NCBI GenBank assembly: GCA_016181175.1
Contig: JACOZV010000004.1
Span: 7,718-71,717, forward strand
Direction of reading: 5' to 3'
Source of the DNA: Candidatus Yanofskybacteria bacterium
GTDB lineage: Bacteria; Patescibacteriota; Minisyncoccia; 2-02-FULL-40-12; IGHO2-01-FULL-4-A
Length of the DNA: 64,000 nt
This document shows, piece after piece, positions 45,179 through 62,125 of the stretch; positions within the stretch are counted from its first letter, which is position 1; each line of letters begins with the position of its first letter. The translations under genes and the position numbers were made by a program. The notes below the pieces were generated by a model. The model made no database searches. It was not told where the DNA came from and worked only from the letters and a program-made list of their open reading frames with translations.

Positions 45179-45194
45179 AGTTTTGTTATTTTAA

Positions 45195-45581: not shown

Positions 45582-45685
45582 TCTGTTTAGATAAACTAAG
45601 CTGATGTTTCTCTGTTTTGATTTTCAACTCAGAAAAAGCATCATTCTTAATTATTAATGGGTTGAACTCAGCTCGATGGGCCAAA

Positions 45686-46656
45686 TTATTTATATAATTC
45701 CGTCTCCGGATGAACTGCTAACCAACTGAACCAGAATCCTCCAATATATGGAAGCGGTTTTTTGTTTGCGCCGATAAACATTCTCACTTCTCCTTCCGTT
45801 TTTTTCTGGATTAGAATCTGCTTTCCGCTGAACGTATCTTTTGTCTCTCCGGCTTTCAGAGCTTCCGAATGATATGCTTTGTACTTTCCATCAATCTGAA
45901 TTCCCAAAACAAATTCTTTGGGGTGCAGACGGGTATCGCTAAAGGATGCACCGAAGGAAACATCGTTGGAGGTGTAATAATCGCCATAAGGATCGTAGCC
46001 GTAACTTCTGATGGTTCCCGTGTCTTTAGAAAGAACGGTTGTGCCGGGATGCAGTTTTTTCCAGTCGCTGTATCTGACTACATCGGATGGGATAACTTTC
46101 AATTTCGTTCCTGTAAACTCACCGACAATCGCTTCGCCGAGCACCTGTGACCATAGAGATTCCTTTTGGGGGTCACCGGTTCGGTTATACATAACAAGGT
46201 TGGACTTCCAGAGCTTCCCGGAAGTGCCAAATTCCACTGTCGTACCGTCTAATTTTCTTTCAAAAACAATACCAGTCAGACAAAGGGGGCAATACGTGAC
46301 CAATACTGGTTGATTGCCAACGGTGTCATTCACAATCTCATGCCAAACTAGTATTTGATAAGGATAAAATCGGAATCCGCTTCTTTAGTGGATAGAAATT
46401 TCGGGTCATCAATTGAGGGTATGCCGTCTTTAGGCGGACCGCCGGATAGAATTTCATTTAATGGTACGGAATGTTTTACCCCGTCGGTTATTAAAATTTT
46501 TCTGTCTGATATTGGCATGTTGAAATCAGAATTGGCCGGCGCTGTTTCTAAAACTTTGGTCTCTCCTTTGGGCAGTTTAAACTGGCGCGATTGGTTATAA
46601 AAATAAAACCCGCCAACTCCAAGCAATAACACAATAATTATAACCCATTTTATCAT
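45686..46656 (-). pseudogene. DUF3179 family gene split by frameshift/indel into N-terminal (46348-46656) and C-terminal (45686-46333) ORFs
   Basis: N-terminal fragment carries TM + GGPPKDGIPSIDDPKF; second frame read upstream of its GTG gives FYPYQILVWHEIVNDTVGNQPVLVTYCPLC (core DUF3179 motif); frames differ; ~15 aa of the family's segment between DDPKF and the YP motif is missing. Confidence 0.6.
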
Positions 46657-47003
46657 TTAACTGTTTTTATAAGTTTAATTAGCTGGTTAGTTAGTTTGTT
46701 ATCTCTATTAAGGCAATAGCATATCTCCTGACCATAACGGCACCTAGAAACAACACCCAAAAGCTCTAACTTTTTCAACTGGTGAGAGATGGCGGATAAA
46801 GATGAGTTCGTCATTTCAGATATCCTGCCTACGCAAGGCTCTTTCTCTGCTATTAAAACCTTAAAAATACTGATCCTGGTAGGGTCGGACAAGAGGCTAA
46901 AAACTTCCGCTGGTTCTAATTGTTTGTATTGGTCATTCATGGATTCGATTAACTCACCATGGGTTGATTCTATAAGCTTATCACAACTTGAAGAATTGAG
47001 CAA
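46653..47003 (-). CDS. ArsR/SmtB family HTH transcriptional regulator
   Basis: LSDPTRISIFKVL...CVGRISEMTNSSLSAISHQLKKLELLGVV. Confidence 0.7.
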   Translation of the reverse strand: MLNSSSCDKLIESTHGELIESMNDQYKQLEPAEVFSLLSDPTRISIFKVLIAEKEPCVGRISEMTNSSLSAISHQLKKLELLGVVSRCRYGQEICYCLNRDNKLTNQLIKLIKTVK

Positions 47004-47276
47004 CTATTCAAGTATACTACCTGAAAAATATGCCGTCAACTGTGGACAACTTGAACATCAAAAAACTGCCCCTGGGCAGCTTAAATTAAAATCATCGTTT
47101 ATCTATCGCCGAGCGTTTCTTTCATTTTGGTGTTACTTCCGTTCCGCCTCTGGTACCGACCCCGGCAAAATGCTTTTTTTCAAAATCATTGAGTTCGTCT
47201 TTATGATTTTTAGCCAACATAGCGTAATTCATCAAATTACGGGCCATCACATCAACCATTGCTTTGGTGGCTTTGC

Positions 47277-47780
47277 TCATTCTCCTTTTTTCAGCATCTT
47301 GGTCCATGCTTCCGCCACACTCTCGGGCGGTATGACAAATCCGAGCCACTGCAAAAAATTGCATAAATTGCCAACAATATGTTGGACCCCGTCTTCGTGA
47401 CCGGTAATAATCAAACCGGCAATTTTATGATAGAAATCAGATTTTCCGGTCATAATATATGACTCGTCAAAATGAGTCATCCTTTCCATAACCCGTTGAA
47501 TCAAACTTGATTGCCCGCCCCACCAAATAGGGGTAGCGAAAATAACAATATCAGCTTTCCGCAAGGCATCGGCAATCTTGGGCCAGTCGTCGTCATCAGA
47601 CATCTTTTCCCCCAGGCCAACCGGGATATTCATATTGGCTAAACGAAATTTCTCCATTTCTGTTCCATATTCATTAAAATGCTTCAAAAGATTATCAACA
47701 AGCTCGTCTGTATTAGATGGCCCATCGCCAACCTTAAGAGTTCCCAATAAAACCACTATTTTTATTTTTTCTTCAAACAT
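47277..47780 (-). CDS. Flavodoxin-like fold NAD(P)H-dependent FMN reductase family protein
   Basis: IVIFATPIWWGGQSSLIQ motif. Confidence 0.6.
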   Translation of the reverse strand: MFEEKIKIVVLLGTLKVGDGPSNTDELVDNLLKHFNEYGTEMEKFRLANMNIPVGLGEKMSDDDDWPKIADALRKADIVIFATPIWWGGQSSLIQRVMERMTHFDESYIMTGKSDFYHKIAGLIITGHEDGVQHIVGNLCNFLQWLGFVIPPESVAEAWTKMLKKGE

Positions 47781-47783
47781 AAT

Positions 47784-48023
47784 TTATTCAATATTTGTCT
47801 TTATTCCACAAATCTTGCAGAACTTATGCCAAAAATTAGGATGATCGACAATCAGCTCTTCCAATATAGCAAACGGAATGACAATAACAATAGCGCCCAA
47901 CATAATACGGGGGGTTATTATTTGATCAGTTAAGAAGTATAAAGACAACAAGTTGTCGGCTAGGTTGGATATTAAACCGAAAATTACAAACTCCAAAATT
48001 CTGAATATGGTTTTAGGTTTCAT
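47784..48023 (-). CDS. Small membrane protein (hypothetical)
   Basis: MKPKTIFRILEFVIFGLISNL... two TM helices. Confidence 0.35.
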   Translation of the reverse strand: MKPKTIFRILEFVIFGLISNLADNLLSLYFLTDQIITPRIMLGAIVIVIPFAILEELIVDHPNFWHKFCKICGIKTNIE

Positions 48024-48030
48024 GTATTCA

Positions 48031-48456
48031 TTATATCCGCCATTTAAAAATAAGGTAAGAGAGTAGGCCAAGTTGTAAAGTTGGAGTTAGCCCCGTATCT
48101 AATAAGGGTATGATCGGCATTAATGAAGTATATGCCCATCGACCGCTACTGATAGCAAAACGTTCTAGTACAACCGCAACAACAACACCGAATATTAACG
48201 CATACCATTTTCTTTCTCTAAAATATGAAATTCTTATAAATAATACAGCTAAAAGTGTTATAAAAAAAGCATCAAAAAGCGTAGCTCGCAATAAAATGAG
48301 TTGAGTTATCTCTCCTGCCTTATAATGGATATACAGATACGAATACAGATTTTCCCAAACTAAATTCAACAAGAAACTAATTATAAAAATTAGAGATAAT
48401 TTCTTAAACATTAGGGCTTTTGATCGAGTTGAGGACGGAGGCAGGTCGCAACACAC
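48031..48456 (-). CDS. Polytopic membrane protein (hypothetical)
   Basis: Four predicted TM helices. Confidence 0.4.
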   Translation of the reverse strand: MCCDLPPSSTRSKALMFKKLSLIFIISFLLNLVWENLYSYLYIHYKAGEITQLILLRATLFDAFFITLLAVLFIRISYFRERKWYALIFGVVVAVVLERFAISSGRWAYTSLMPIIPLLDTGLTPTLQLGLLSYLIFKWRI

Positions 48457-48904
48457 CAGAAACTACTTGATAGGTGGGTAAACGCCTTTATGGCCTATGA
48501 CTGAAAGAAGGCTTTTGCTGATCCAGAAGTGGCTATTAAACAGATATGTCAGCTACTGGCCACAATATAGTGAATTAAAAAACTACTTCCCTGGCCTATC
48601 AAAATCTGGCCCTCGGGGTTCTTTGTCTACAAAAGGTTAGAACTGGATAAAAACCGCTTAAACAAAGCACAAAAGGAAGCTCTCGCTTCCCTTCATTCAC
48701 ACTGGCTCGCTTGGCTAACCGCTTTCCGAACAACGGACTGGTCTAAAATCTTCCCATATCCATTGGTTTCTTTGAGGCAGATGCGCTACTTACTCACTTT
48801 AGTGGACTAACTTTTGCCCTCTTTTTTGCCTTTTTGAATAATTTTCGAACCGGACGACTCCAGCCCAAAAAATCGGGTACTTTACTGCTTACAATACTTT
48901 GCAT

Positions 48905-49075
48905 TTAGGATCCTTGTTTGCGCGCCGGTTCTTCCTTGATTCGACGAAGTGTTTCGTCGAAGAGAATGGCGAAGGCGTCATCAAGATTACGCTGACCTTC
49001 TTCAGTTAAAGGAAGCTGGTGATAGCGCAGCTCAACAAGTAACGGTTTCTGTTTTCTTTTTTTCTTGGTGGTCAT
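48905..49075 (-). CDS. Unlisted small basic protein (56 aa, MTTKKKRKQKPLLVELRYHQLPLTEEGQRNLDDAFAILFDETLRRIKEEPARKQGS)
   Basis: ATG 6 nt after the stop of the upstream nuclease-fold gene; last gene of the co-directional defence array; antitoxin/RHH-like size and charge. Confidence 0.35.
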   Translation of the reverse strand: MTTKKKRKQKPLLVELRYHQLPLTEEGQRNLDDAFAILFDETLRRIKEEPARKQGS

Positions 49076-49080
49076 GACAA

Positions 49081-50559
49081 TTACATTACCAACTTCCTAT
49101 ATGCCCCATCTAAAAAAGTGTCTATTGCTCTGATCTGATTATCTCTCCTTAAATCGAGGAGTGTTTTTATATCATCGTCGTCAAGCGCGATGATAAAACC
49201 TCGATCGTCGGACGCTGTATCTTTGCATCGTTGAATGAAGCGCGTCTTGTTGGTAAAACTCCTGCATATTAACAATCCGAATCTGCCACGATTAGTAGAA
49301 AACCTACCGGACAACTGGTCGAGTTCGGGGTTAGCCGGATCAGATGAGTAATTCTTACACTCAACAAAAATATAGCTTGATGGTACTCGCTTGTTCTGCG
49401 GTAATTCCCAAAAGAACCCTTTTTTTGCAGCGTTTTCGAAAACGATATCAACTTTCTTTCTCCTTTCATGTAGCGGCTGCTCCTTTTTCGGATTTATAAG
49501 AAACGGATAAAAAATGGCAGTGAGCGCCCCTTGAATATGGTTATGGAAATTGTCTGCGTCAGCATCACCAGTATCTATACGATCCAGTTCTGCTTTTAGA
49601 GCATCGAAGTCAAAAGCTGGGCGTGCACCTATAGCATCAATGTCTTCGTTACTAATTTCTTCGAGATTGTACTGTTTACTGTCGCGATATCGTCGCAAAA
49701 CTTCCGGATGATCTTTCGAAAAAGTGTAAAGAAATTGCTTCGAATGAGGGTGAAGTTCTTTGAGTGCCTTTTTTGTAGGCGGTCTACGCGTTCCATCTTT
49801 AAGCACCCTCACAAGGGCAGAGTTCGCGCTTAAATGCTCTTCCTGTAAAAAGTTTAGTACGAAATGCTGATAGTATTCCTGATGGCTAAACTCCAAACTA
49901 AAACGCGCAACTGCTTTAGGGACAAGTAAAACATTTCTATCATTACACACCGGAAGATTAACATACTCATTAGTCCATTCATTACGAACCGTATTCCAAA
50001 CAGTGCCGCTTGGTACGTTGTGCATTGTAATACCCCAAAATATACATTCGTTTTGGGTGTACTCGATTAACTTTCCGCGAATAATGTTAGTGGTCATGTC
50101 AGATATCTTGTCATGGCTGATGCCTTCGATAAGAAGTTCGCACTCTTCAAGATCTTTAAGAAACCCAGTTCTTACAGCCGAGCTTTCAGCCAACGCATCA
50201 TATAAATCGTTCGCCTGATCTCCTCCTACACCCCTACCTCTCGGGGATCCTCCAACAGACAAACCAAAACGAGTTTGATTCGGCTCTCGCAATCCTGAAA
50301 GCATGTATTTTGCGTCATCCTTTCTATCGGCTCTGATCAAGTCGATAACTCTTTGAAAAAAATTAACGATCTGATTGTGGCAATCGATTGACCACCTATC
50401 ATTCCGCTTTGAAAGAGCATAAGGATCAATAAACAAAGGAATATCCCCATTATTTATGGGAACATCGACAAAATCGAGTTCGTACTGGCTTTTACCAAGT
50501 CGGAAGTTCTCCGAAAAGGTTTCGTATCTTCTTGGTTGTTGTGTTCTTTGTCTTGGCAT
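49081..50559 (-). CDS. Hypothetical 492-aa protein with C-terminal PD-(D/E)xK restriction-endonuclease-like fold; candidate RM-associated effector/toxin
   Basis: C-terminal KKVDIVFENAAKKG...SYIFVECKNYSSD (D, E-x-K arrangement); N-terminal 330 aa unrecognised; starts 8 nt after hsdS stop. Confidence 0.5.
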   Translation of the reverse strand: MPRQRTQQPRRYETFSENFRLGKSQYELDFVDVPINNGDIPLFIDPYALSKRNDRWSIDCHNQIVNFFQRVIDLIRADRKDDAKYMLSGLREPNQTRFGLSVGGSPRGRGVGGDQANDLYDALAESSAVRTGFLKDLEECELLIEGISHDKISDMTTNIIRGKLIEYTQNECIFWGITMHNVPSGTVWNTVRNEWTNEYVNLPVCNDRNVLLVPKAVARFSLEFSHQEYYQHFVLNFLQEEHLSANSALVRVLKDGTRRPPTKKALKELHPHSKQFLYTFSKDHPEVLRRYRDSKQYNLEEISNEDIDAIGARPAFDFDALKAELDRIDTGDADADNFHNHIQGALTAIFYPFLINPKKEQPLHERRKKVDIVFENAAKKGFFWELPQNKRVPSSYIFVECKNYSSDPANPELDQLSGRFSTNRGRFGLLICRSFTNKTRFIQRCKDTASDDRGFIIALDDDDIKTLLDLRRDNQIRAIDTFLDGAYRKLVM

Positions 50560-50567
50560 GGTTCATG

Positions 50568-52250
50568 CTATTTGATCAATTTCTTATTCCAGCCCTTTGA
50601 TTTGATGAACTTGAGCGTGCCTTCGATTTCGGCTTTCCTAAACTTGTTTGGTTTCCATGCTTGAATCTTGTCATTGATCGTTGTGAGATCGTCGCTTTTT
50701 GCATCCTGCACAACCTTGCAGACGGTTGCCAAGCACTCAATTTGAGCGCTGGTGGAGTTTTTAATTGCCGGCATAAGATCATTAAGGACGGACTCCATGT
50801 TGCTCAAGATTTTTGAGTTGTATTTGAAGAGTTTACCGGAGTTAGCGCCTAAACCATAGACGCCGTTTTTTTGCTGAAAGAAGCCATTGCGAGGACTTGC
50901 GCCGGCGGTGATGGCTTTCTTAATCTGTAGATCGTAGGGGCCGAAGTTCTGCGAGGTAAAGCTGAAGCCGAGCGGTACCCTGTAAACTTCCTGCGCGAGA
51001 TATAAGAGCTTCGCCACAACCATTTCACCACGTTCAAAACGTTGCAACACCGCTCCGATGGCTTGCCACACCGGAAAGACACTTGCTTTGACAGGAACAG
51101 CAGCCACGCCCTCTTTTACCAACTCACCAGCAAGCGCTTTTGACAAGGCGGAATCAAAAAGTTCCTTCAGCTTCTCTTTTTGAACGAGAAGTCCTTTTTT
51201 ATACTCTTTAATAGCACTAAACCTCTCGGCAATGGCATGCTGGTCTGTCGTTGGTGGTACCATGATTTTTATTTTTTTAAGTGCGGTAGAGTTTACTGCG
51301 GCTTGATTTACCCACGGCGTGCATAGATAACGAAATCTATCGGTTGAATATAAGTATTGAAGATATATAGAGAAGTAGCGCGGATCTAATACTTTTTCGT
51401 TTGTGCGAATCCGAGTGATGTGATTTGAAAAGACATACTTGTAATCCTTGTCTATGTAAACGCTTTTTCCAACTAAACTAATACTGTTTGTATTATTAAA
51501 TAGGACATCACCACTCTTCAGGAAATAAGTTTCCGCATGTGGGTAATCCTGTGGAATATACTTGATGCTATCAAAGTTCAAACTACCGTCATCGCCGATA
51601 TTATTAGGTCTGATTTGTCCAATACCCTTCCCAACCGGACGGAAGGCAAAACCATTCGTAACATCGACTACTAACGCACCGATCTTTTCTTCCTTCCAGC
51701 TTTTTGACGATGATCCAAAAATCTTATTCAAAAGCGACTGAAAAAGCTGATCTGTTTTTTCAATAAGCGCATCATTGAGTTTTTGGGCTTCGCGGATAGA
51801 ATCAACACGTTCTGCAATTGCTTGTTGGGTATTTAAAGACGGCATTGGTACTCGTAAATTTTCAAGGAAGGTTCTATTCAAATGTGGTACTGCCGCTCCT
51901 TGCGCTGCTGATCTAATTTTTTGCTGATTAAATTGCAAAAGGTAAGCAAGGTATCGACTTTCCAGTGTTTCGTTATGAACCACTTTAGCAATCGTGGAAC
52001 CAACAAATCCTCTTAAACCGATACCAACGGTGCCGGCATAAGCACCATCCCAAACCAATAAAACATCGTCATTGTCGCATCGAACTCCGTTATTTTCTGA
52101 AGTGTAAAGCGTATATTGACCACTTCTTAAATTTTCAATGCCAATATAAGGCAAGGTGTCCTTTGCGGCTTCTGCTGCGGAAATCATCATTTTACCTTTC
52201 GCAAAAGAAATAAGTTCGCCTAATTTTTTTGTTTGATAATTACTTTGCAT
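50568..52250 (-). CDS. hsdS: Type I restriction-modification specificity subunit HsdS with ~180-aa C-terminal Panacea (DUF4065)-like extension
   Basis: Two TRD/conserved-repeat halves typical of HsdS (aa 1-380), then VVAKLLYLAQEVYRVPLGFSFTSQNFGPYDLQIKKAI resembling the Panacea KLQKLLYYAQ...GP motif; 560 aa versus ~400-450 for typical HsdS. Confidence 0.6.
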   Translation of the reverse strand: MQSNYQTKKLGELISFAKGKMMISAAEAAKDTLPYIGIENLRSGQYTLYTSENNGVRCDNDDVLLVWDGAYAGTVGIGLRGFVGSTIAKVVHNETLESRYLAYLLQFNQQKIRSAAQGAAVPHLNRTFLENLRVPMPSLNTQQAIAERVDSIREAQKLNDALIEKTDQLFQSLLNKIFGSSSKSWKEEKIGALVVDVTNGFAFRPVGKGIGQIRPNNIGDDGSLNFDSIKYIPQDYPHAETYFLKSGDVLFNNTNSISLVGKSVYIDKDYKYVFSNHITRIRTNEKVLDPRYFSIYLQYLYSTDRFRYLCTPWVNQAAVNSTALKKIKIMVPPTTDQHAIAERFSAIKEYKKGLLVQKEKLKELFDSALSKALAGELVKEGVAAVPVKASVFPVWQAIGAVLQRFERGEMVVAKLLYLAQEVYRVPLGFSFTSQNFGPYDLQIKKAITAGASPRNGFFQQKNGVYGLGANSGKLFKYNSKILSNMESVLNDLMPAIKNSTSAQIECLATVCKVVQDAKSDDLTTINDKIQAWKPNKFRKAEIEGTLKFIKSKGWNKKLIK

Positions 52251-52869
52251 AAGAATGCGCAGAGTATTGAATTCTACCTACGCGGTTTAATAAGCGCGTA
52301 TCCCGAACTTTTAAGTTTTCACCATCTTTATCGAATGGCCTTATTTCTGCTTTCCAAATAGATCTACAAAAAACAGTGTTCTGATCATTCATATATGTAA
52401 TTTCTAAACATACTGGTATCGCAAATTCAGCCATTTCATACCATTCTCTAAAATTTTTTATGAGTTGAAGTTTGATTCTAAATGACTCATCCTCTGTGGT
52501 CTGATAGAGGGGCACCTTATGATATCTTTCTTCTGCGATGGGCATACCGGTCGCTTTGGGTTGGGAGATATTAAAAGCCGATCCGCGACCAGAATTGAAA
52601 CAGTCAAACTCTATGGAAAAAACTATTTCAAAATGATTCGCATCAGCACGGATTATGCTTCCGGCATCCATCACACCATATCCATGCTCTACTTCACTAT
52701 GTCTAACCCCAACCCATATTCTTAATGGACGCAAAATTAAGCTGGGTACTGTACTTAATGCAGAATTCCAATCTGCTTTTCTGATAGCTTTTATCGAAAT
52801 CCACAGTGAAACAACTGCGGTTATCCCGACTAAAATATCTGCCGTTTTAGAAATTATTTCAAAATTCAT
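52240..52869 (-). CDS. Hypothetical N-terminally TM-anchored protein (209 aa) inserted between hsdM and hsdS
   Basis: TM ILVGITAVVSLWISI; no recognisable domain; 6-nt gap to hsdM, 11-nt overlap with hsdS. Confidence 0.45.
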   Translation of the reverse strand: MNFEIISKTADILVGITAVVSLWISIKAIRKADWNSALSTVPSLILRPLRIWVGVRHSEVEHGYGVMDAGSIIRADANHFEIVFSIEFDCFNSGRGSAFNISQPKATGMPIAEERYHKVPLYQTTEDESFRIKLQLIKNFREWYEMAEFAIPVCLEITYMNDQNTVFCRSIWKAEIRPFDKDGENLKVRDTRLLNRVGRIQYSAHSYAK

Positions 52870-52875
52870 AATCTT

Positions 52876-54405
52876 TTATCCCAGTTTATCTGTCATCTCT
52901 TCTTGTAATTTTGTTAGATCTTTATTGATTTTCTCAATTTCTTTCAAAATAATTTTTGGCTCGCGGTGTTTTATCTCTTCTCCGATAGCATATGGGTTAT
53001 AAGTGTTTGCAGAAAGTATGTAATCATTTTCGATGATTTCTTTAACTGGCGTAAACCATGCAAGCTGTTTTTCAACTGCGCGGTTTTTATGCCAGAGTTC
53101 CAACAGCTTCGGAATATCATTTCTATATTGGCTGCCGAATTTTTTGGATGCTGAAAGCGATGAACCATCACCTTGCATATCAAAGAACCATACCTTTGCA
53201 GATTCATCGAGTTTCGGCACCGCCTTTTTTTTGAACACCAAGAAGGACGTTTTTACGCCGGCATACGGCTGAAACACGCCTGCCGGCATGGAAACAACCG
53301 CCTGTAAGTCCGTATTTTCAAGTAGAAAACGGCGGATCTCTTTATCATCGCGGTTGGTACCAAAAAATGAACCTTCGGGAAGGATTATGCCGGCTCTGCC
53401 ATTGGGCTTGAGCGAGTTTATAACATGACCCAAAAATAGAACCTGTGTTTTGGTTGATTTGACCGGCAAGGTTGGTTTTATACGTTCCCGATCAACCTTT
53501 CCAGAGAATGGTGGATTTGTAAGGACAATATCGAATGTGCGCAGATCATCCTCATCTTCAGATCCAGCAACCGTGTCTTTGCGCTTAATGTTCGCACTCT
53601 CTATGCCATGTAATATCAAATTCATAAGTGCTAACCGCACCATCTCCGGATCAACATCAGAACCCAAAAAGGTTTTTTTGGTTAGAAATTCCCACTGTTT
53701 TTTATCGAGCTTATCTCCAAACCCCCTCTTGTGTCCATTTTCCTCTTCAATGCTTTTGGGATCGCTATTTCTTAATCGGATCCAATCATAGCCGGAGATG
53801 AGGAAGCCACCAGAACCACACGCAGGATCATAAACAGTTTCGCCAATTTTTGGATTCACCATTTCAACTATGACGCGAACGATATGACGCGGAGTGAGAA
53901 ATTGTCCAAGTTCGCCGGCTGATTCAATACTTGCAAGCAGCTCTTCATAAAGATCGCCCTTAACATCTGTGTCTAATCCTGTTAAATTGATCGTGTCAAT
54001 AATTTCAATCGTGTTTTTTAATGTAACAGAATGGGGAATTTCGAGCTTCGCATCATAAAAAATTTGCCGTATGTTAGAGTGTCCATTTTGCAATCGCTCC
54101 ACAAAGGGAAATACCTCATCACGAACAATTTTATACAATTCATCGCCAGCTTTTTCTTTCCAGCGCGACCATCGGAATTTTTCGTTTTTGCCCTCGAAAA
54201 TTGATTTATGTTTACGCCCAGTAAGTTCTTCGCCTCTCTCCATAGAAATATCCTGTTCCTCAAGCATTTTCAAAAAAAACAAAAAGCTAATCTGCTGGAT
54301 CCTTCTCACAGGGTCTCGTAAACCTGCACCCCAAAGATAATCGTTCAGGCGATCTAATTTTTGGCGAAACTCTATTCTTAATTGTTGTATTTTTTGTTCG
54401 GGCAT
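52876..54405 (-). CDS. hsdM: Type I RM N6-adenine DNA methyltransferase subunit
   Basis: NPPF motif (VLTNPPFSGK), AdoMet motif DPACGSGGFL. Confidence 0.85.
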   Translation of the reverse strand: MPEQKIQQLRIEFRQKLDRLNDYLWGAGLRDPVRRIQQISFLFFLKMLEEQDISMERGEELTGRKHKSIFEGKNEKFRWSRWKEKAGDELYKIVRDEVFPFVERLQNGHSNIRQIFYDAKLEIPHSVTLKNTIEIIDTINLTGLDTDVKGDLYEELLASIESAGELGQFLTPRHIVRVIVEMVNPKIGETVYDPACGSGGFLISGYDWIRLRNSDPKSIEEENGHKRGFGDKLDKKQWEFLTKKTFLGSDVDPEMVRLALMNLILHGIESANIKRKDTVAGSEDEDDLRTFDIVLTNPPFSGKVDRERIKPTLPVKSTKTQVLFLGHVINSLKPNGRAGIILPEGSFFGTNRDDKEIRRFLLENTDLQAVVSMPAGVFQPYAGVKTSFLVFKKKAVPKLDESAKVWFFDMQGDGSSLSASKKFGSQYRNDIPKLLELWHKNRAVEKQLAWFTPVKEIIENDYILSANTYNPYAIGEEIKHREPKIILKEIEKINKDLTKLQEEMTDKLG

Positions 54406-54407
54406 AG

Positions 54408-56663
54408 TTATCGTGTACAGATCCTTTGGTTAAGCTCCGAGAGAGCGGATTGTAAAACACCTTCCTCAAACACTCGCAACGCATAATTAAGACCACCGAT
54501 TTGCCGGAAGATCGGCTCGTTGAATATGGAAATATCAACCGGCTCTTTGCGAACGATACATTGCGACTTTACCAAACGCAGGATTTTTATTTGATCGGAT
54601 GCAAAGTTTTTCTCGATTAGCCATGATTCAAAAAGCTGATTTACACGCTGCTCATGTAGTTGCTCTTCTGTAGGGAACTCCTTTGTTTTGAGTGCTGCTT
54701 GTATGAAGTCATTGAGCGTGCCTACCGGATAGCGATATGCTTCTCGCAAGTTTGCTTCGTTAAAATAGAACTCCGGAGAATTAAGTTTTTCGGAAAGGAA
54801 GGCGGTTTCGTCATTTGAAAGATCTTCGCCTTGTTTAACTTTTGAAATAAGCGGCTCGGTTTTAGCCATCTCTTGAACTTGCTGCTCCCATGCCACCTGA
54901 TAATCATCGGCATCAATTCTTTCGCCTTCTGCTCCAACTTCGATATGCGCACGCTGCATAACCACGTCCATGTTTTCGGGTGCTGTTTCCGGCACTTGAA
55001 CAAAAAGTCGCTTCACCACTTCTTCCTCTTCCTGCGTTAAATCTTCAGCTTCGGTTCCCCACGGAATACCAGCTTTAATTTTTGCATAGGCAGAATACGG
55101 ATCAAATCCTTCGTCATTGAAGTAACGAGTAACGCCAGCAAAGTCATAAATACGAAAAGATGTTTTGCTGATTTTTTGATATAATCGGCTGCCACGTCCT
55201 CGCATCTGTTGGTAAAGGATCGGGGAACGTGTAGGACGCGCCATGATCAAGTTTTCTACCATTGGGACATCGATGCCGGTATCCATCATACCCACCGAAA
55301 CCGCTACCATCGGCATTTCTTGGTGCTTAAAACGTCTTATGGCTCCACGAGGATCTTCGGTATCGGAAGTAATAACTTCAGCGTATCTTCCCTTATATTC
55401 CGGATATGTCTGATTGAGATAATACGCCAATTGCGCAGCGTGTTTTTTCGTAACAGCATAAAGAATGGTTTTGCGATGGTGTTTTGGTTCATGCTTTTCT
55501 TCTTCCTCTCTGAATGTTTTTGCCAATTGCTCGTTTCTTGCCGGCACATTGATTTTTCTCTCCAAATCTTCGGCGTTGTAATCTTCACCCTCAAATTGCA
55601 CACCTTCTAAAGACACTTTGGTGTCGATCTGTAAGATCTCATAACCAGCAAGAAATCCCTCTTTGATGCCTCGTCGAATACTGTATAGAAATGTCGGTTT
55701 ACCCTTTTTTTCACGCTCATCCCAACAACCAAAGAGCTTATAGGTGTTACGATCAATAAACACACTCGGCGTTGCTGTAAGACCTATCCGGATTGCGTCA
55801 AAATGCGATAGGACAGCGTTGTAGATGCCGAAGATGGATCTATGTGCTTCGTCCGAGATAACCACATCAAAATAACCACTTGTAAAATTCGATAGTTGCG
55901 AATAAAGAGTGGGAAGTGTCGAGATGATTATTGAGGATTCGTCTTTTTGCTTGCCTCCGTAAAGAAGCTTTGTAGGATAATCTTTCAAAATTTCATCAAA
56001 AACTTCCTTTGTTTGTATGCCTAAATCAATGCGATCAACAAGAAATAAAACACGCCGGATGAGATTCGCTTCAAACAGCCGTTTGAGATAAAGAGCTATG
56101 GTATCTGTCTTGCCAGTGCCGGTTGCCATAGCGATGAGCATTTTGCGCAAACCGCCCTCAATGGTTTTGTCCATGATCTGCATGGCCTCCTTTTGATATG
56201 GGCGTGGTGTGCGTAATTCGCCACCTTTAAAATAATTGTCGGGTACAGGAATGGCGGTTATCGGCTTTTGATCTATTCGTAGGGTTTGGATTTTTTCTAA
56301 ATCGCGTTGAGAAAAGAAGGTAATTACCTTTTGCTCTGGACGATATTTGTAATCCCAAAAATAAATATCCTCTCCATTGGAAAGGAAAATGAAATCGATA
56401 CCCAGCTCTTCTGCGTAGGTCAATGCCTGCTGTTTTGCCAATACTGGTTCAGTTGAAAACCGCTTTGCTTCGATAAGCCCGATGGCTCTGCCGCGTCTAT
56501 CCCTCAAGAAATAATCGGCACGTCCATCCTTCACCGGATCTTCGGTTGAAACTTGATTTTTATCCTCAATATCCCAGCCAGCTTCGCGGAGTTTGCGATC
56601 GATGACAATGCGAGCGTCCGTTTCTCTTGAGTTGTTATTGTTATTTGTCATATTCATTTTCAT
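54408..56663 (-). CDS. hsdR: Type I restriction enzyme R subunit (compact, 751 aa)
   Basis: N-terminal PD-(D/E)xK (DYFLRD...IEAKR), SF2 helicase Walker A MATGTGKTDT and DEAH-like VVISDEAHRS. Confidence 0.75.
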   Translation of the reverse strand: MKMNMTNNNNNSRETDARIVIDRKLREAGWDIEDKNQVSTEDPVKDGRADYFLRDRRGRAIGLIEAKRFSTEPVLAKQQALTYAEELGIDFIFLSNGEDIYFWDYKYRPEQKVITFFSQRDLEKIQTLRIDQKPITAIPVPDNYFKGGELRTPRPYQKEAMQIMDKTIEGGLRKMLIAMATGTGKTDTIALYLKRLFEANLIRRVLFLVDRIDLGIQTKEVFDEILKDYPTKLLYGGKQKDESSIIISTLPTLYSQLSNFTSGYFDVVISDEAHRSIFGIYNAVLSHFDAIRIGLTATPSVFIDRNTYKLFGCWDEREKKGKPTFLYSIRRGIKEGFLAGYEILQIDTKVSLEGVQFEGEDYNAEDLERKINVPARNEQLAKTFREEEEKHEPKHHRKTILYAVTKKHAAQLAYYLNQTYPEYKGRYAEVITSDTEDPRGAIRRFKHQEMPMVAVSVGMMDTGIDVPMVENLIMARPTRSPILYQQMRGRGSRLYQKISKTSFRIYDFAGVTRYFNDEGFDPYSAYAKIKAGIPWGTEAEDLTQEEEEVVKRLFVQVPETAPENMDVVMQRAHIEVGAEGERIDADDYQVAWEQQVQEMAKTEPLISKVKQGEDLSNDETAFLSEKLNSPEFYFNEANLREAYRYPVGTLNDFIQAALKTKEFPTEEQLHEQRVNQLFESWLIEKNFASDQIKILRLVKSQCIVRKEPVDISIFNEPIFRQIGGLNYALRVFEEGVLQSALSELNQRICTR

Positions 56664-56676
56664 TCTTGAGCTTGAT

Positions 56677-58476
56677 CTATAAATTCTCGTAATACCCCCT
56701 GATCTTTTTCGCCATGAGTTTGCGGCGTTCCTTCAAAAACCTTTCGTAATCCCCAAGCTCCATATTCTGAAAGCCATCCGGTATGCAATTCTGTTTTAGG
56801 TTCTCGGCGAGATCTTTTTTATCGGTTATGCCGCCATACTTGAGCTTGCCTCCTTCGGTTTGTTTCATTACTTCAGCCATGTACTCTTTGGGAGATTTTT
56901 TGCCGACTTTGATATTTATTTCAGATTGAGCATAAGTAAAGTTGCCAATCTGGTTGTAATCGCCCCTACTTAAGCCGCCTGCTTTCTTCAGGTATTCCTT
57001 TGGAAAGAGATGATGGATGTCGCCGCGATGACTGATCATATTACCAACGGTAATGTCGGTTGAAAGAAAGCCCCTGTCGTTATTTTTAACCTGTGCCGCA
57101 AAAAAAAGATTGAGAAATGGATTGCTGATGCTCGCCTTATCGAGTTCCTGAATAAGCTGCGCGTTCCAAAAAGCATCGGAGAGTTGCGCTTCTTCGATTG
57201 ATTTCAAAATCTCGCCAGCATCGCCATTGGAAATCTGCTTAATATCCGAATCAAATTGGCTTTCCGGTGATCCGGAATAACGTCCGGTGAGGATAGACAT
57301 CACAAACCAGCGTTGGACATACTTTTCGATCAAGCTTGGATCGACACTCTTATCGCGCAGCTTGAGATATAAAATATAGGCAAAGTTAAGAGCGTTTTGC
57401 GAATTGATAAGGTCGTTGCTTATAAAGCCGCAGGATTTGATGATCATTACAAACCGCTTGAAGTTTGTTTCATTTACAAAATCCAGTACCGCATCACGGA
57501 GTTTTTGGAAAGACGCATCCATTATGTCTTGCTCAAAACTGCGTGTTTCAAAGTTACGCCCCGAAAGCAGTCCGACAAGATCCGCCATCTTGCCTCGTTC
57601 AAATTGTTTGGTGAAACTCACACGCAACACATCGGAATAATCCGGATCGTAGAGGTCGTCATTTTCATCTTTAAGCCATGCAAGTTTTGAAAGGTAAACA
57701 GTTTTGTTAAACTCTGCATCATTTTCAGTTATGTGTTTGTAAAACTGCGGCTCGCGCGCAAGATGGCAAAAATAGTCGACACACTTTCTTAAATTAACGC
57801 CGAAATTATCCTCCTTGTCATAAGAAGCTATCTTCGACATGGCAAAGTCAGCTTGGCTTAATACAACACCTTTGGAATTGATACGGATAAAAATCTCGGT
57901 AACCGTTTCAATATCTAAACCGGCATCAAGTTCAATAAAACCAACCTGCTTGCTTTTGATCTGTAATAACTTCTCAATGTTCTTTTCAATGAGTTCACGA
58001 TTTACGTCAAGATTTTTGTCGCAATAGTCAGTTACATCTTTGAATAAGCCGCCGTCCTTACTCATAAGTTTTGAGATGTCAGCTATCCACGCCTTGTCCT
58101 TTTTTATTGCCGGTGTGAGTGTGGCAAATTCTTCTATGATGGGGTGAAATGCAATATAGATCCGTTCCTCCTTATAATCTTTATTGATAATGTTTTGACC
58201 GAGAATTGCCGCACGGAGAGCGGTAATGCGTTGCTGTCCGTCAATCAAGACCTTTTTGCCGTTGGAAATGGAGCCATCTTTAAGACGAACATCGGGGTTT
58301 TTCCATGCAATGATATAGCCGATCGGATAGCCACGATAAAGCGAATCCATCAGATCGCGCACCTTTGTCGAATCCCAAACAAACGGACGCTGGATTTCCG
58401 GTATAGCGATTTCCTTTTCCTGAACCCAATTCAGGATATTGCTCACAAAGTATTGATTGACTGTGTATTTTTGCAT
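56677..58476 (-). CDS. GmrSD-family Type IV (modification-dependent) restriction endonuclease: DUF262 + DUF1524
   Basis: DUF262 motifs IPEIQRPFVW and DGQQRITAL; C-terminal HNH-like DIHHLFPKEY; start taken at MQKYTVNQY. Confidence 0.75.
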   Translation of the reverse strand: MQKYTVNQYFVSNILNWVQEKEIAIPEIQRPFVWDSTKVRDLMDSLYRGYPIGYIIAWKNPDVRLKDGSISNGKKVLIDGQQRITALRAAILGQNIINKDYKEERIYIAFHPIIEEFATLTPAIKKDKAWIADISKLMSKDGGLFKDVTDYCDKNLDVNRELIEKNIEKLLQIKSKQVGFIELDAGLDIETVTEIFIRINSKGVVLSQADFAMSKIASYDKEDNFGVNLRKCVDYFCHLAREPQFYKHITENDAEFNKTVYLSKLAWLKDENDDLYDPDYSDVLRVSFTKQFERGKMADLVGLLSGRNFETRSFEQDIMDASFQKLRDAVLDFVNETNFKRFVMIIKSCGFISNDLINSQNALNFAYILYLKLRDKSVDPSLIEKYVQRWFVMSILTGRYSGSPESQFDSDIKQISNGDAGEILKSIEEAQLSDAFWNAQLIQELDKASISNPFLNLFFAAQVKNNDRGFLSTDITVGNMISHRGDIHHLFPKEYLKKAGGLSRGDYNQIGNFTYAQSEINIKVGKKSPKEYMAEVMKQTEGGKLKYGGITDKKDLAENLKQNCIPDGFQNMELGDYERFLKERRKLMAKKIRGYYENL

Positions 58477-58477
58477 A

Positions 58478-58666
58478 TTACTTTTTTGGTTTCTTGATAT
58501 TCGATCGAGAACGAATAAACGCCTCGAGATCGCTCTCGCTGATCCGCCAATAGCCGACTTTGGTCGCCTTGAGCCGCCCACTCGAAATATAGCGATACAA
58601 GGATCGCTCGCTAACTCGCAAATACTTTGCCGCTTCACGTAATGTAAGAAATTTCTTTTTGGTCAT
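58478..58666 (-). CDS. Excisionase/Xis-family helix-turn-helix DNA-binding protein (62 aa)
   Basis: LTLREAAKYLRVSERSLYRYISSGRLKATKVGYWRISESDLEAF matches the excisionase-type HTH. Confidence 0.65.
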   Translation of the reverse strand: MTKKKFLTLREAAKYLRVSERSLYRYISSGRLKATKVGYWRISESDLEAFIRSRSNIKKPKK

Positions 58667-58693
58667 AGGTCAATTGATTTCATTCTATCGCAA

Positions 58694-58715
58694 AAAAGCC
58701 ACATGGTCAAATGTG
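58694..58715. promoter_or_regulatory. Operator-like motif TGGTCAAATGTGGCAA.GTC.G (copy 1) upstream of the xis-like gene
   Basis: 18/20 identical to the copy at 59331-59352. Confidence 0.45.
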
Positions 58716-58747
58716 GCAAAGTCGGTTATCTTCCTAAAAGGCAGGTG

Positions 58748-59188
58748 TTAGCAGGGGTAACCATTTGGACAAATATCTTCCTGTCGTTCGGTCGTCGGAT
58801 CAATAGGGGTGTTTAAGTCCGGCACGGTATGGTTGCGTGCCATCAACCACCAAACGAGAAGTATCCAAAATCCCCAAAATAAAACTACTGGAACAACTTT
58901 TGAGATGTTTTTCTTTACTCTGATTTTCAACGGAGGGTGAAGTACATGTTTAAGCTCATGGCTTGCTAAATCGCCGTACTCGATTTTCTCCACACACTTT
59001 GGACACGCAACAAATTCTTTCTGCTGCTCGGAAAAGCGCTTGTTTACTCTTGCCCAGAACCCCTCGTCAATAAATGGATTTCTATTTTTTCCGCTCATAG
59101 TTTTGTGAGCGGCGAGTTTTGAAACACAAAACCCACCACTGGGAGGGCTTGCGCCCCTATGGAAGTTTCCCTCCATAACGTTAGGCAC
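58748..59188 (-). CDS. Hypothetical protein with Cys/His zinc-finger-like motif and C-terminal TM helix
   Basis: CPKCVEKIEYGDLASHELKH; TM VVPVVLFWGFWILLVWWLM. Confidence 0.4.
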   Translation of the reverse strand: MPNVMEGNFHRGASPPSGGFCVSKLAAHKTMSGKNRNPFIDEGFWARVNKRFSEQQKEFVACPKCVEKIEYGDLASHELKHVLHPPLKIRVKKNISKVVPVVLFWGFWILLVWWLMARNHTVPDLNTPIDPTTERQEDICPNGYPC

Positions 59189-59330
59189 GCCCCAAATGAT
59201 GGGTTTTCTATGCCTAACGATTTGCGACCATGCCGCCAGCCGAAGCCGATGGTTTAGATCATTTGATATCCAATTGTGTTTTTAAGTATATCAGAAAAAC
59301 ATGAGATCCTGCAACGGATGAAAAATACTG

Positions 59331-59352
59331 CTGGTCAAATGTGGCAAGGTCT
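59331..59352. promoter_or_regulatory. Operator-like motif copy 2 in the divergent promoter region
   Basis: ctGGTCAAATGTGGCAAgGTCtG. Confidence 0.45.
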
Positions 59353-59371: not shown

Positions 59372-59869
59372 ATGACGATGAATATGAAAATGAATAGTAA
59401 AAAAACCGAACCATTTCGCGTTGTTATAAATACAAGTACCGACCCCAATGTGCCATTGATTGAGCTTGTACGTGGTAACCGGAAAGCCAAACTTCCACCT
59501 ATTGCGATCAAAAACGTACGTCTTGATACCGATCGCTATTTGCTTGTCGTAAATGACGGCGAGCGCGTTGTTGCCTTTAAGTCAAAAAGGCACAAGAAGG
59601 GACTGGATAAAGAAACGAAGCTATTTAAAGTGCTGGTATTGCTTTTTGATTTTCGCCTCGAAAAAAAGGGTGAAAAAATACTCCACAGCAAAAACCTTAA
59701 CCCCGACTACACTTCTCTAAAAAATATCGCCGGAAATAGCGGAAGCCCAACACAAGAAGCAGCATATAGAAACATAAAGCGGTTAAATGGCTACTTTGAG
59801 GAAAATGGCTTGTCTATATGGATTGAAAAACACGGCAATGATTGCCGCCTCGTAGTTAAGAAGAGTTAA
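59372..59869 (+). CDS. Hypothetical protein (165 aa), mobile-element module
   Basis: ORF with plausible coding bias; no recognisable domain. Confidence 0.4.
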   Translation: MTMNMKMNSKKTEPFRVVINTSTDPNVPLIELVRGNRKAKLPPIAIKNVRLDTDRYLLVVNDGERVVAFKSKRHKKGLDKETKLFKVLVLLFDFRLEKKGEKILHSKNLNPDYTSLKNIAGNSGSPTQEAAYRNIKRLNGYFEENGLSIWIEKHGNDCRLVVKKS

Positions 59870-60052
59870 TACGCGGACATTATTTTTACAGAAGCGCTCG
59901 ATACTTTAAGGATAAAAGCGCTCAAAAAGTAGAAAAAATCCCTCAAGGGACATTTTGAAAATGTCCCCGATTTTTCTCAATAGTGAATGATATGGTCAAA
60001 GCAAGATACGCTTTGGCTTTTTTGTTTTCCCAAGCCAGCGCGGTCGGATGAT

Positions 60053-60298
60053 ATGAAGATACTAAATGAAAAAAACTTTTATCAAACTTCTGACTTTTGC
60101 CTCGCAACGGTTATTTCACTTTCTTTTCCGATAGAAGCAGTAGATCGGCAGAACACGCGAAAAGTTCAATTTATATTTCGTCGCAATAACGTCCTCGATA
60201 AGCTGATCGAGGATTTTTGGCGTGGTGAGATCCGAATTGATCCACAGCTTTTCTATAACCAATTACGAGTGATGAAAGCTCGGATTTACAACGACTAA
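60053..60298 (+). CDS. Hypothetical small protein
   Basis: ORF 59987-60298; likely start MKILNEK. Confidence 0.35.
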   Translation: MKILNEKNFYQTSDFCLATVISLSFPIEAVDRQNTRKVQFIFRRNNVLDKLIEDFWRGEIRIDPQLFYNQLRVMKARIYND

Positions 60299-60299
60299 C

Positions 60300-60554
60300 A
60301 TGCTTAAACCATCGGCAATTGAAGAATTAAGGTCGATATTGCTCGAAGAGTTTGGGCGTGATGTTGATATTAAAACAGCCAGAACGATCGGCGAGGATTT
60401 AGTCGGCTTCTACGACACTCTCGCAAAGATCGCGCATAAGGATAAAACGATAAGCAAAAATCTTTCCCCTTGCTCGGGTTCCATAGTGGACTATCCACTT
60501 GCAATGAGTAGTTCATTGAAAAAGAGGGTGGAACCCGAACAAAGAGAAAGATAA
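60300..60554 (+). CDS. Hypothetical small protein (84 aa)
   Basis: Starts 2 nt after the previous ORF and is immediately followed by the helicase gene. Confidence 0.4.
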   Translation: MLKPSAIEELRSILLEEFGRDVDIKTARTIGEDLVGFYDTLAKIAHKDKTISKNLSPCSGSIVDYPLAMSSSLKKRVEPEQRER

Positions 60555-60565
60555 AAAAAGAAATT

Positions 60566-62125
60566 ATGAAAAACATTTTTAGTGGTAACCACAAAAAAGG
60601 AAAGGTGTCCGACAAACTGAAGGGCGCGGAATTGGTTTTAGATGTGATCGAAAAAAGCGACTTATGGCTCTTTCACGATCAATTAAACGAGGCATACGCC
60701 GTTATAGCTGGTGATGGAGCATCAATAATGAAAATCGACTCGCAAAAGTTCCACAACTGGCTTTTTAATCATATCTATGACGAAACCGGAAAGATCAGCA
60801 ACACAGCCGCGTGCGAGGCAGCCATAAAGGTTCTGAAACATCAAGCAGAAACTGGGAATCTATTTGAGCTTGGAGTTAGGGTAAAACTGCGTGAGGGCGG
60901 TATTTGGTACGATCTCGGCGGTCAAAACTTTGTGAGTATCGCAGAAGATGGATGGTTGGTAACTGATCCTCCGCAACCAATCCTCTTTAAGAGGTTCGGG
61001 CATCAAAAAGAGCAGGTGCGACCGGAACGCGAGGGTAGCATGAATGAGTTTATGGAGCTTATTAACCTACAAGACAAAAAAGAATCTTTGCTCCTCATGG
61101 TTTACTTGGTTGCATCGTTTATTCCTAACTTTCCTCATCCTGTATTGATTGTGCATGGTTCGCAGGGGGCTGCTAAAAGTACCGCATGTAAATTGATTAA
61201 AGAATTAGTGGATCCATCTGCATTAGAAACTTCGACTATAAACGACGATAAAGACATAAAAGAATTGGTACAAGCCGCATCGCATCATTGGCTGTTAGTT
61301 CTCGATAATATCTCCTATATCTCCGAGAAAATCTCGGACACGATCTCACGAATATGTACCGGAGGCGGATTATCTAAAAGAATACATTATAGCAATGACG
61401 ACGACTTCATTTACAACTTTATGCACATAGTCGCCATTAACGGAATCCATCAGATCGTAAGCAAGCCCGATCTCCTCGATCGATCAATCTTGTTGGCGCT
61501 TGAACGCATCCCTGAAGATAAAAGGATAACGGAGGAGCAACTTTGGGGTCGTTTCAATGCAATGAAAGGAAGAGTTCTCGGCGCGGTTTTCGATGCCGTA
61601 TCCGGAGCATTGCGTGAATATCCGAATGTGCAGTTAGCAACATTGCCACGAATGGCGGACTTTGCACGCTGGGGATGCGCTATTGCGAGGACGCTCGGCT
61701 ACACCGACGAGGACTTTATGAATGTATACAAAACGAATATCGGAAGGCAGAACCAAGAGGCGCTTTCAGCAAGCGCCACAGCAGCAGTCATCATCAAGCT
61801 CATGGAAGATAATGATGTTTTCGAAGATACACCATCTGCTCTTTTGCGACTAATGGATCCGATAGCCGACGATCTCAAGGTAAAAGAAGCGAAGGATTAT
61901 CCACGACAGGCAAACTGGCTTTGGAGGCGCATTGAAGCGGTTATACCGAACCTTGCTGACGCCGGCATAAAGGTCGAGCAAACGAAAGATACTGAACGGA
62001 AGATAAAAATATCAAAGATATTGCGCGGTGATGACAGCACTGAAATTATGCCGTCTTCCGAAAAACCAGCAGAAGAACCTGCAAAAGACAGCATCGACAG
62101 CATAGACGGCACTTTCCCCCTGTAG
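60566..62125 (+). CDS. Phage/plasmid primase-associated SF3 helicase (D5/P4-alpha-like) replication protein
   Basis: Walker A VHGSQGAAKST, Walker B LLVLDNISY, motif C VAINGIH in SF3 spacing. Confidence 0.6.
   Translation: MKNIFSGNHKKGKVSDKLKGAELVLDVIEKSDLWLFHDQLNEAYAVIAGDGASIMKIDSQKFHNWLFNHIYDETGKISNTAACEAAIKVLKHQAETGNLFELGVRVKLREGGIWYDLGGQNFVSIAEDGWLVTDPPQPILFKRFGHQKEQVRPEREGSMNEFMELINLQDKKESLLLMVYLVASFIPNFPHPVLIVHGSQGAAKSTACKLIKELVDPSALETSTINDDKDIKELVQAASHHWLLVLDNISYISEKISDTISRICTGGGLSKRIHYSNDDDFIYNFMHIVAINGIHQIVSKPDLLDRSILLALERIPEDKRITEEQLWGRFNAMKGRVLGAVFDAVSGALREYPNVQLATLPRMADFARWGCAIARTLGYTDEDFMNVYKTNIGRQNQEALSASATAAVIIKLMEDNDVFEDTPSALLRLMDPIADDLKVKEAKDYPRQANWLWRRIEAVIPNLADAGIKVEQTKDTERKIKISKILRGDDSTEIMPSSEKPAEEPAKDSIDSIDGTFPL

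Follow-up and report, generated by a model that had tools for sequence, protein, structure and literature searches.

We analyzed a cluster of eight genes (g1 to g8) on the minus strand of a 64,000-nucleotide stretch of DNA from Candidatus Yanofskybacteria bacterium (contig JACOZV010000004.1; hereafter the window). The patterns found are best explained by a mosaic, layered defence locus in which separable modules stand head to tail, probably behind one promoter, and we give this reading a probability of roughly 0.7. An earlier note made from the sequence alone had described eight co-directional, tightly packed genes forming a composite defence operon, and all eight minus-strand open reading frames (ORFs) are present where it placed them, filling 48905-58666 (Table 1). 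Seven of the eight are backed by a family match or by conservation across genomes, g8 being the weak exception. Pfam, PADLOC and NCBIfam scans showed the domain calls of the note to be essentially correct, with two labels, Xis-like and Panacea, needing refinement. The composite nature of the cluster is likewise borne out, in that PADLOC assigns g3, g4 and g6 to Type I restriction-modification (R-M), g2 to HEC-05 and g7 to PDC-M36A, leaves g5 and g8 without a match and so does not account for every gene, and in that the parts are found separately in other genomes. For example, g5 occurs in Type I loci whose HsdS lacks the C-terminal extension present in g6, and HsdS proteins with this extension (the fusion) occur in 33 loci that have neither g5 nor g7. 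Handles beginning with L denote the contigs and loci collected here.

According to the proposed mechanism, a first module, composed of the helix-turn-helix (HTH) regulator g1 and the Type I subunits HsdR (g3), HsdM (g4) and HsdS (g6), would methylate a bipartite site on host DNA and cut unmethylated incoming DNA after ATP-driven translocation. Its extras would be g5, putatively membrane-anchored and translationally coupled to hsdS, and a DarG-C/Panacea-like domain carried on HsdS itself. A second module, g2, would most likely cut DNA with modified bases, so that phages evading Type I restriction through hypermodified DNA would be caught. The third, g7, would be an enzyme acting on its own, in which an N-terminal domain for recognition or sensing precedes a FokI-like cleavage domain, and g8 is a doubtful small add-on.

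The Type I core and its regulator

The Type I R-M system formed by g3, g4 and g6 is, as judged from its domains and motifs, complete and intact, with the HsdR nuclease/helicase, HsdM and HsdS all represented. Pfam domains detected in g3 were ResIII (3.5e-34), Helicase_C, HSDR_N and EcoEI_R_C (2.8e-17), together with a PADLOC match to REase_I (6.7e-70), and IEAK and DEAH motifs were seen in the translation. The product of g4 matched N6_Mtase (1.1e-61) and HsdM_N in Pfam and, across its whole length, MTase_I in PADLOC (3.4e-141), and it contains the NPPF motif, within LTNPPFSG. In the core of g6, Methylase_S was found in two stretches (5.7e-34), and Specificity_I in PADLOC covered residues 4-377 (4.8e-65).

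For g1 the Xis-like label held as regards family, with a Pfam HTH_17 match (E 2.9e-18) and a score of 48 bits to the excisionase family TIGR01764, above the cut-off of 28.8, but not as regards an excisionase role. Three further, distinct loci with an HsdS fusion (L099/L100, L107 and L109; these are four contigs, of which L099 and L100 are duplicates) have a g1 homolog of 51-56% identity before hsdM, and the window has no integrase near g1. A regulator role is therefore favoured over an excisionase role. Thus g1 is probably a transcriptional regulator of the locus.

The same gene brings up the possibility that all eight genes constitute one integrated system of the methylation-associated defence system (MADS) type. 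MADS also has eight genes, and PADLOC and NCBIfam do match g1 with mad1 (6.7e-12), g4 with mad2 (5.5e-48) and g6 with mad5 (4.5e-32). These scores are, however, far below the NCBIfam cut-offs (29 versus 80 bits for MAD1, 159 versus 720 for MAD2 and 52 versus 400 for MAD5), and the Type I models MTase_I and Specificity_I fit g4 and g6 far better. No match to mad3, mad4, mad6, mad7 or mad8 was obtained among the eight proteins, a canonical HsdR is present, and the modules separate in other genomes. With sub-cut-off scores and five components missing, membership in MADS was rejected, and we regard a single system of this type as very improbable.

The GmrSD-family enzyme

The second module is represented by g2, which matched GmrSD_N (DUF262) in Pfam at 115.2 bits against a cut-off of 33.2. 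Its best PADLOC match was HEC-05 (1.4e-31), a candidate family rather than a validated type, and its nearest solved relative by sequence was the DUF262 protein 7p9k (E 1.2e-10), which we take to be BrxU. A His-containing motif (GDIHHLFPKEY...NFTYAQSEIN) was seen, by eye only, in the C-terminal part. A copy with 72% identity follows hsdR in L111, another locus with an HsdS fusion, where its position differs from that in the window. Because this 599-aa homolog starts at the corresponding place, the start of g2 was set at the ATG at 58476 and not at the GTG upstream. We assign g2 as a putative modification-dependent Type IV restriction enzyme.

The solitary nuclease

The earlier note had pointed to the unknown members of the cluster as candidates for new anti-phage functions. 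One of these members, g7, belongs to a candidate family that existing catalogues contain. It matched PDC-M36A in PADLOC (2.1e-48), phrog_27295 in PHROGs (3.6e-105) and, in precomputed annotation, the Pfam family DUF8370 (PF28123). An AlphaFold model (predicted local distance difference test score, pLDDT, 86.4; predicted template modelling score 0.87) shows the D...(D/E)xK residues of a PD-(D/E)xK nuclease on an alpha/beta core with a FokI-type fold, and in an alignment of 24 homologs the residues D371, E400 and K402 were invariant. A Foldseek search with the whole chain gave weak similarity to N.BspD6I and FokI, a structure search with the N-terminal ~350 residues gave no informative match, and a PDB sequence search with g7 returned nothing significant.

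Members of DUF8370 are present in at least 312 species-level genomes of many phyla, on 13 viral contigs in IMG/VR, and in PHROGs. All-against-all clustering of neighbours within 6 kb of g7 homologs in 80 species-level loci yielded no conserved partner of the kind that might be called PDC-M36B; the most frequent neighbour family recurred in at most 9 of these loci, and Type I genes lay within 10 kb in only about 5. Neighbours were often mobile-element or defence genes, such as integrases, transposases, a Type IIG enzyme, DitA and AbiO/Nhi-like proteins. A methyltransferase stood beside g7 in about 3 of the 80 loci, comprising one neighbour cluster of three loci, so that g7 does not have the cognate methyltransferase of a Type IIS system as a regular neighbour. 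Since it is usually found without a methyltransferase, g7 is most likely modification-dependent (Type IV-like) or otherwise self-limiting, and we read it, from its domains and neighbourhoods, as a self-contained, mobile restriction-like nuclease. A literature search on PDC-M36 and DUF8370 found nothing relevant. The family thereby gains a concrete and testable assignment, as an enzyme that stands alone and carries a FokI-like cleavage domain.

Accessory genes g5 and g8

No family match was obtained for g5 in any profile library searched. There were 15 homologs with 42-100% identity, and those with names were from bacteria of the Candidate Phyla Radiation (CPR). The 3′ end of g5 overlaps hsdS by 11 nt in the window, and the same overlap is seen in L091/L092 and in L093; in L088/L089 it is a 125-aa gene preceding hsdS that g5 overlaps. 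In L128 g5 comes after an hsdS-like ORF, and L090 is the only g5 locus without R-M genes. As this conserved arrangement shows, g5 is a genuine gene and accompanies Type I hsdS as an accessory. Several accessory ORFs, including the g5 homologs, lie between hsdM and hsdS in L088/L089, L091/L092 and L093. In the predicted structure of g5 (pLDDT 85.6), a long hydrophobic helix (residues 3-39) precedes a beta-sandwich, for which a fold search found only generic beta-sandwich neighbours. It is a guess on our part that g5 could act as a membrane tether or a sensor for the methyltransferase core. The product of g5 is a putative membrane protein, coupled to hsdS and, as far as its named homologs show, restricted to CPR bacteria.

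A net basic and weakly conserved product is encoded by g8, for which Pfam, PADLOC, NCBIfam and PHROGs scans gave no family match. The sole plausible homolog is an 81-aa ORF at 11487-11732 of L004, with 35% identity and a shared A[FY]xILFDE motif, which sits after a g7 homolog of 72% identity. An ORF at 1605-1772 of L127, after a g7 homolog of 90% identity, was not clearly related (E 0.07). Both of these small ORFs, placed right after the closest g7 homologs, are about the size of g8. Within the window, an 84-aa plus-strand ORF at 60300-60554 aligned unconvincingly with g8 (13% identity). As g8 was found only in the same population, apart from the one weak homolog in L004, it was rejected as a conserved component.

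The HsdS fusion

Residues ~381-560 of g6 form an extension beyond a complete HsdS. The Panacea label given to it earlier captures a distant, sub-threshold similarity; the closest relative is instead the C-terminal domain of DarG. The NCBIfam DarG model matched the extension (E 6e-6) over model positions 185-324, i.e. the C-terminal part of DarG, and tblastn against 72,556 plasmids returned only macro-domain proteins of Cytobacillus encoded beside DarT, with the similarity limited to their C-terminal domain. Alignment by hhalign of the extension-family profile with the Cytobacillus DarG gave a probability of 92.3% (E 5.6e-7), with a GPYD motif in common. Against Pfam SocA_Panacea (PF13274) the extension scored 16.1 bits (E 0.022), short of the gathering score of 25.7, but the alignment spanned profile positions 2-113 of 113, and 4 of 81 members of the extension family matched the Panacea profile at E of 0.01 or less. 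In the reverse direction, when the 11,538 ORFs of all fetched loci were searched with a hidden Markov model of the extension family, three bona fide Pfam Panacea proteins (E 0.0075-0.022) were found besides the family itself, and no other match up to E 10. The signature motif of Panacea is GPV (PMC8832971); in an alignment with a bona fide Panacea protein, the invariant GPY of the extension domain (G63-P64-Y65) falls on this motif. A PDB sequence search with the extension returned nothing significant. On profile evidence, then, the HsdS extension shares ancestry with the C-terminal, DarT-binding domain of DarG and has a more remote relationship to Panacea. As indicated by the entry for Deep et al. 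(2023) among the references of PMC11825919, the DarG C-terminal domain is reported to inhibit DarT by mimicking single-stranded DNA.

The fusion is recurrent. An exhaustive profile search with the extension domain, with matches accepted at E up to 1e-3, yielded 243 clusters (50% identity), the majority being proteins of 550-650 aa with the domain at the C-terminus, and Methylase_S was present in 60 of 81 sampled family members. Short hits that looked like stand-alone versions of the domain (P0121-P0124) were rejected as cut at contig starts or ends or miscalled, and the real ORF behind the short hit in L084 is a 498-aa HsdS fusion. Related loci were collected by alignment to the extension domain only, and in all 33 metagenome loci so obtained the fusion domain lies inside a Type I locus. 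A literature search on fusions of HsdS with DUF4065 found nothing relevant; the fusion of HsdS to a DarG-C/Panacea-like domain and the hsdS-coupled g5 both appear undescribed in the literature searched.

The gene that follows the fusion is of nuclease type in every readable locus except L120, where it is a serine recombinase on the opposite strand. The follower is hsdR in about 21 distinct loci and GmrSD in L098, L124 and L126, with GmrSD in L123/L125 placed after a small ORF of 162 aa. Other followers are Mrr_cat in L121, a Cas4/RNaseH-like nuclease in L118, a gene for HARE-HTH plus PDDEXK_5 in L116/L117 (the PDDEXK_5 match being below the Pfam cut-off), a T5orf172 gene in L114/L115 and DUF8370 (g7) in the window. 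The pattern was counted among fusion loci only and not against ordinary hsdS genes. No conserved dedicated toxin recurs next to the fusion domain among the fusion loci examined, and no DarT is present in them. In two groups of related CPR loci with g5 and without the fusion (L091/L092 and L093), a free HTH-Panacea antitoxin and a small gene stand between hsdS and hsdR, and in L088/L089 a Fic gene occupies that place. The free HTH-Panacea gene at the same position suggests that the fusion may have arisen from an embedded antitoxin gene.

These observations bear on an alternative explanation in which the DarG-C/Panacea-like domain of HsdS restrains the nuclease encoded just downstream, by guard or toxin-antitoxin coupling. 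Disturbance of the methyltransferase complex, for instance by a phage anti-restriction protein, would then free a toxic nuclease, a situation similar to that of PrrC, which EcoprrI holds latent. Consistent with this are the homology of the fused domain to the toxin-binding C-terminus of DarG, its weak similarity to Panacea, the nuclease-type follower, and, where the fusion is lacking, the free HTH-Panacea gene accompanied, before hsdR, by a small gene at the place of a toxin. However, g7 is absent from the 33 other fusion loci and the fusion from the 80 g7 loci, Type IV enzymes are in any case known neighbours of Type I loci, the follower pattern comes from fusion loci only, and L120 departs from it. 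Since g7 and the fusion are never together elsewhere, the g6 extension and g7 were rejected as a co-evolving antitoxin-toxin pair. Overall we think such coupling unlikely. An equally tentative idea, also one we would not expect to hold, is that the fused domain is a built-in regulator that binds whichever nuclease is its neighbour, mostly HsdR and otherwise a Type IV-like enzyme such as g7. If this were true, nuclease activity would be tied to the state of the methyltransferase core, with the domain serving either to curb self-restriction, in the manner of an antitoxin acting in cis or of a DNA mimic, or as a guard that frees the nuclease when phage anti-restriction proteins attack. Type I R-M would then have a form of control not described before, and toxin-antitoxin and restriction systems would be joined by a direct evolutionary bridge. 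Control of a nuclease by the fused domain would also offer an explanation, open to testing, of how some Type I systems keep from restricting their own DNA or perceive anti-restriction.

Table 1. Position of the genes, domains and other elements discussed in the text.
Feature	Position	Strand	Description
g1	58478-58666	-	62 aa, HTH_17 (excisionase/MerR-like) DNA-binding protein
g2	56677-58476	-	599 aa, GmrSD-family (DUF262) protein
g3	54408-56663	-	751 aa, HsdR, Type I restriction/translocase subunit, EcoEI_R_C tail
g4	52876-54405	-	509 aa, HsdM, Type I N6-adenine methyltransferase
g5	52240-52869	-	209 aa, N-terminal hydrophobic helix and beta-sandwich domain
g6, whole gene	50568-52250	-	HsdS core and C-terminal extension
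g6, N-terminal part (residues 1 to ~380)	51111-52250	-	HsdS core, two target-recognition domains
g6, C-terminal extension (residues ~381-560)	50568-51110	-	DarG-C/Panacea-like antitoxin-type domain, ~180 residues
g7	49081-50559	-	492 aa, putative solitary nuclease, DUF8370 / PDC-M36A
g7, N-terminal domain (~residues 1-350)		-	
g7, cleavage domain (~residues 352-492)	49081-49506	-	FokI-like PD-(D/E)xK domain
g8	48905-49075	-	56 aa, basic; weak support as a gene
Promoter-like site	58682-58719	-	TTGACC-17-TAGAAT, consensus match, ~16 nt upstream of the g1 ATG
Terminator-like hairpin	48669-48696	-	12-bp stem and T-rich tail, ~210 nt downstream of g8
LOOT RNA, L106	5071-5190		
LOOT RNA, L109	15273-15393		
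LOOT RNA, L111	5363-5491		
LOOT RNA, L118	4443-4558		
LOOT RNA, L120	12042-12169		

Transcription of the cluster

From g1 to g8 the distances between genes, calculated from the coordinates, are +1, +13, +2, +6, -11, +8 and +5 nt. The earlier note had given a range of -11 to +14 nt, of which the lower end agrees and the upper end is +13. Tight packing is not by itself distinctive, because the adjoining housekeeping genes at 45.7-48.5 kb are just as dense, and this leaves room for an interpretation in which the genes are adjacent without forming one operon, each module having its own promoter and the spacing reflecting a compact genome. Weak promoter-like sites inside the cluster (e.g. 52937-52908 and 52896-52868, before g5) and the clear assembly of the modules from independent sources could be taken in its favour. 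Gaps of -11 to +13 nt, however, leave almost no space for promoters or terminators, promoter-like sites are fewer than expected from shuffles (17 versus 24.2), and the only promoter match at 10 of 12 positions inside or heading the cluster is the one before g1. Separate transcription therefore seems to us a rather improbable account.

The strong promoter-like site before g1 and the strong terminator-like hairpin after g8, which is the top-scoring terminator candidate on the minus strand of the region covered by the consensus scan, support the reading as a mosaic of modules probably transcribed from one promoter. The site before g1 overlaps a perfect 7-bp inverted repeat (GCCACAT N6 ATGTGGC) followed by T6; the element is a candidate promoter, operator or upstream terminator. 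Two exact copies of a 16-mer, TTGCCACATTTGACCA, are present on the minus strand, one at 58704-58719, where it overlaps the -35 region and the hairpin before g1, and the other at 59332-59347, ~70 nt upstream of a LOOT RNA. The two copies may represent an operator or promoter element that is shared.

Surroundings and borders

The LOOT RNA (Rfam RF03000) at 59144-59260 is full-length, with 71 bits where the gathering score is 46.4, and stands on the minus strand like g1, ~480 nt upstream of it. LOOT was also found within 10 kb of the Type I locus with the HsdS fusion in 5 of 16 related loci scanned (Table 1). It always stands directly before an ORF for a membrane protein or zinc-ribbon membrane protein on its own strand, and therefore looks like the 5′ leader of that ORF. 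In the window, the ORF between LOOT and g1 (58748-59188, minus strand) has 146 aa if read from a GTG, with a shorter version from an internal ATG, and contains a C-x2-C motif and a C-terminal hydrophobic segment, with no family match. The long version is probably not real because its 5′ part overlaps the LOOT RNA. A tRNA occurs near the Type I genes in several loci, with a serine recombinase as well in L120.

Divergent from the cluster is a plus-strand block at 59372-62418 with ORFs of 165, 103 (DUF5659), 84, 519 and 75 aa, in which DUF5659 was the only family match, followed by ~1.6 kb (62400-64000) with few ORFs longer than ~90 aa. Of the compositional deviations proposed earlier as a check, that in tetranucleotides was found, the cluster ranking 2 of 55 among segments of the same size, and that in GC content was not, the value being unremarkable. 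Such an unusual tetranucleotide profile at unchanged GC fits horizontal acquisition. The deviation continues beyond the cluster to the end of the window, and the acquired island may be larger than eight genes and include the plus-strand genes at 59.4-62.4 kb. At the island borders within the window, neither an integrase nor a tRNA was seen; four tRNA genes (Trp-CCA, Thr-GGT, Tyr-GTA and Thr-TGT) form a cluster at the start of the window (123-1217, minus strand). Downstream of the cluster, ~41000-48460 on the minus strand holds genes that resemble housekeeping or redox genes, including an FMN_red flavoprotein and an ArsR-type regulator identified by Pfam and, by eye, thioredoxin-reductase-like, DsbA-like and CcdA-like proteins. 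The border of the island on the chromosomal side is likely near 48.5-48.9 kb.

A chimeric assembly, which the earlier note had named as a possible objection, is unlikely because identical sequence was found in contigs from three separate sequencing runs (L001 with g1-g8, L002 with g4-g8 and L003 with g6-g8) and because g5 is also on an NCBI contig of ~126 kb from a metagenome-assembled genome of Candidatus Yanofskybacteria.

Comparison with known systems

Several findings weigh against the mosaic reading or its parts. First is that a pure mosaic leaves both the fused antitoxin-type domain and the nuclease gene after it unexplained. GmrSD_C (DUF1524) was undetected by Pfam in the C-terminal 389 residues of g2 at E up to 10. 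The score of g3 for the NCBIfam equivalog of the EcoAI/FtnUII family is 267.9 bits, below the cut-off of 550, with EcoEI_R_C still present. For g7, the 3 of 80 loci that do have an adjacent methyltransferase count against a substrate that was deduced solely from its usual absence. Lastly, the scan also lists weak promoter-like and terminator-like sites inside the cluster.

The stacking of Type I with Type IV enzymes, which the earlier note had called typical of defence islands, is confirmed as a known layout, and the familiarity of this layout means that the cluster as a whole is not surprising. The core resembles Type I systems of family IB, like EcoAI and EcoEI, in its HsdR nuclease and superfamily 2 motifs, the EcoEI_R_C domain, the NPPF motif of HsdM and an HsdS with two target-recognition domains, but differs in the order R-M-(g5)-S, with g5 inserted between hsdM and hsdS, in the extra ~180-aa domain of HsdS, and in an HsdR that scores below the EcoAI equivalog cut-off. 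GmrSD and BrxU share with g2 the N-terminal DUF262, 7p9k being the nearest, and g2 is placed beside a methylation system as BrxU is in a BREX island. Compared with their DUF262 plus DUF1524 architecture, g2 has only the His motif in place of a Pfam-detectable DUF1524, and its best PADLOC match is HEC-05. The C-terminal FokI-like domain of g7, behind a large N-terminal domain, is like that of the Type IIS enzymes FokI and N.BspD6I and of enzymes of the MspJI/AspBHI type; unlike them g7 has no sequence similarity to solved proteins, no recognisable relative of its N-terminal domain and usually no adjoining methyltransferase.

The extension of HsdS is related by sequence homology to the DarG C-terminal domain and Panacea, sharing GPYD with DarG and a weak reciprocal similarity with Panacea. 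In contrast to those proteins it is fused to HsdS and has neither a macro domain nor an HTH domain nor a conserved adjacent DarT or other toxin. Finally, PrrC-EcoprrI and other accessory genes are examples of extra genes within or right after Type I operons. The likeness to PrrC-EcoprrI is in an extra effector possibly coupled to R-M; here there is no PrrC-like anticodon nuclease, and the coupling, which is hypothetical, would be through the domain fused to HsdS.

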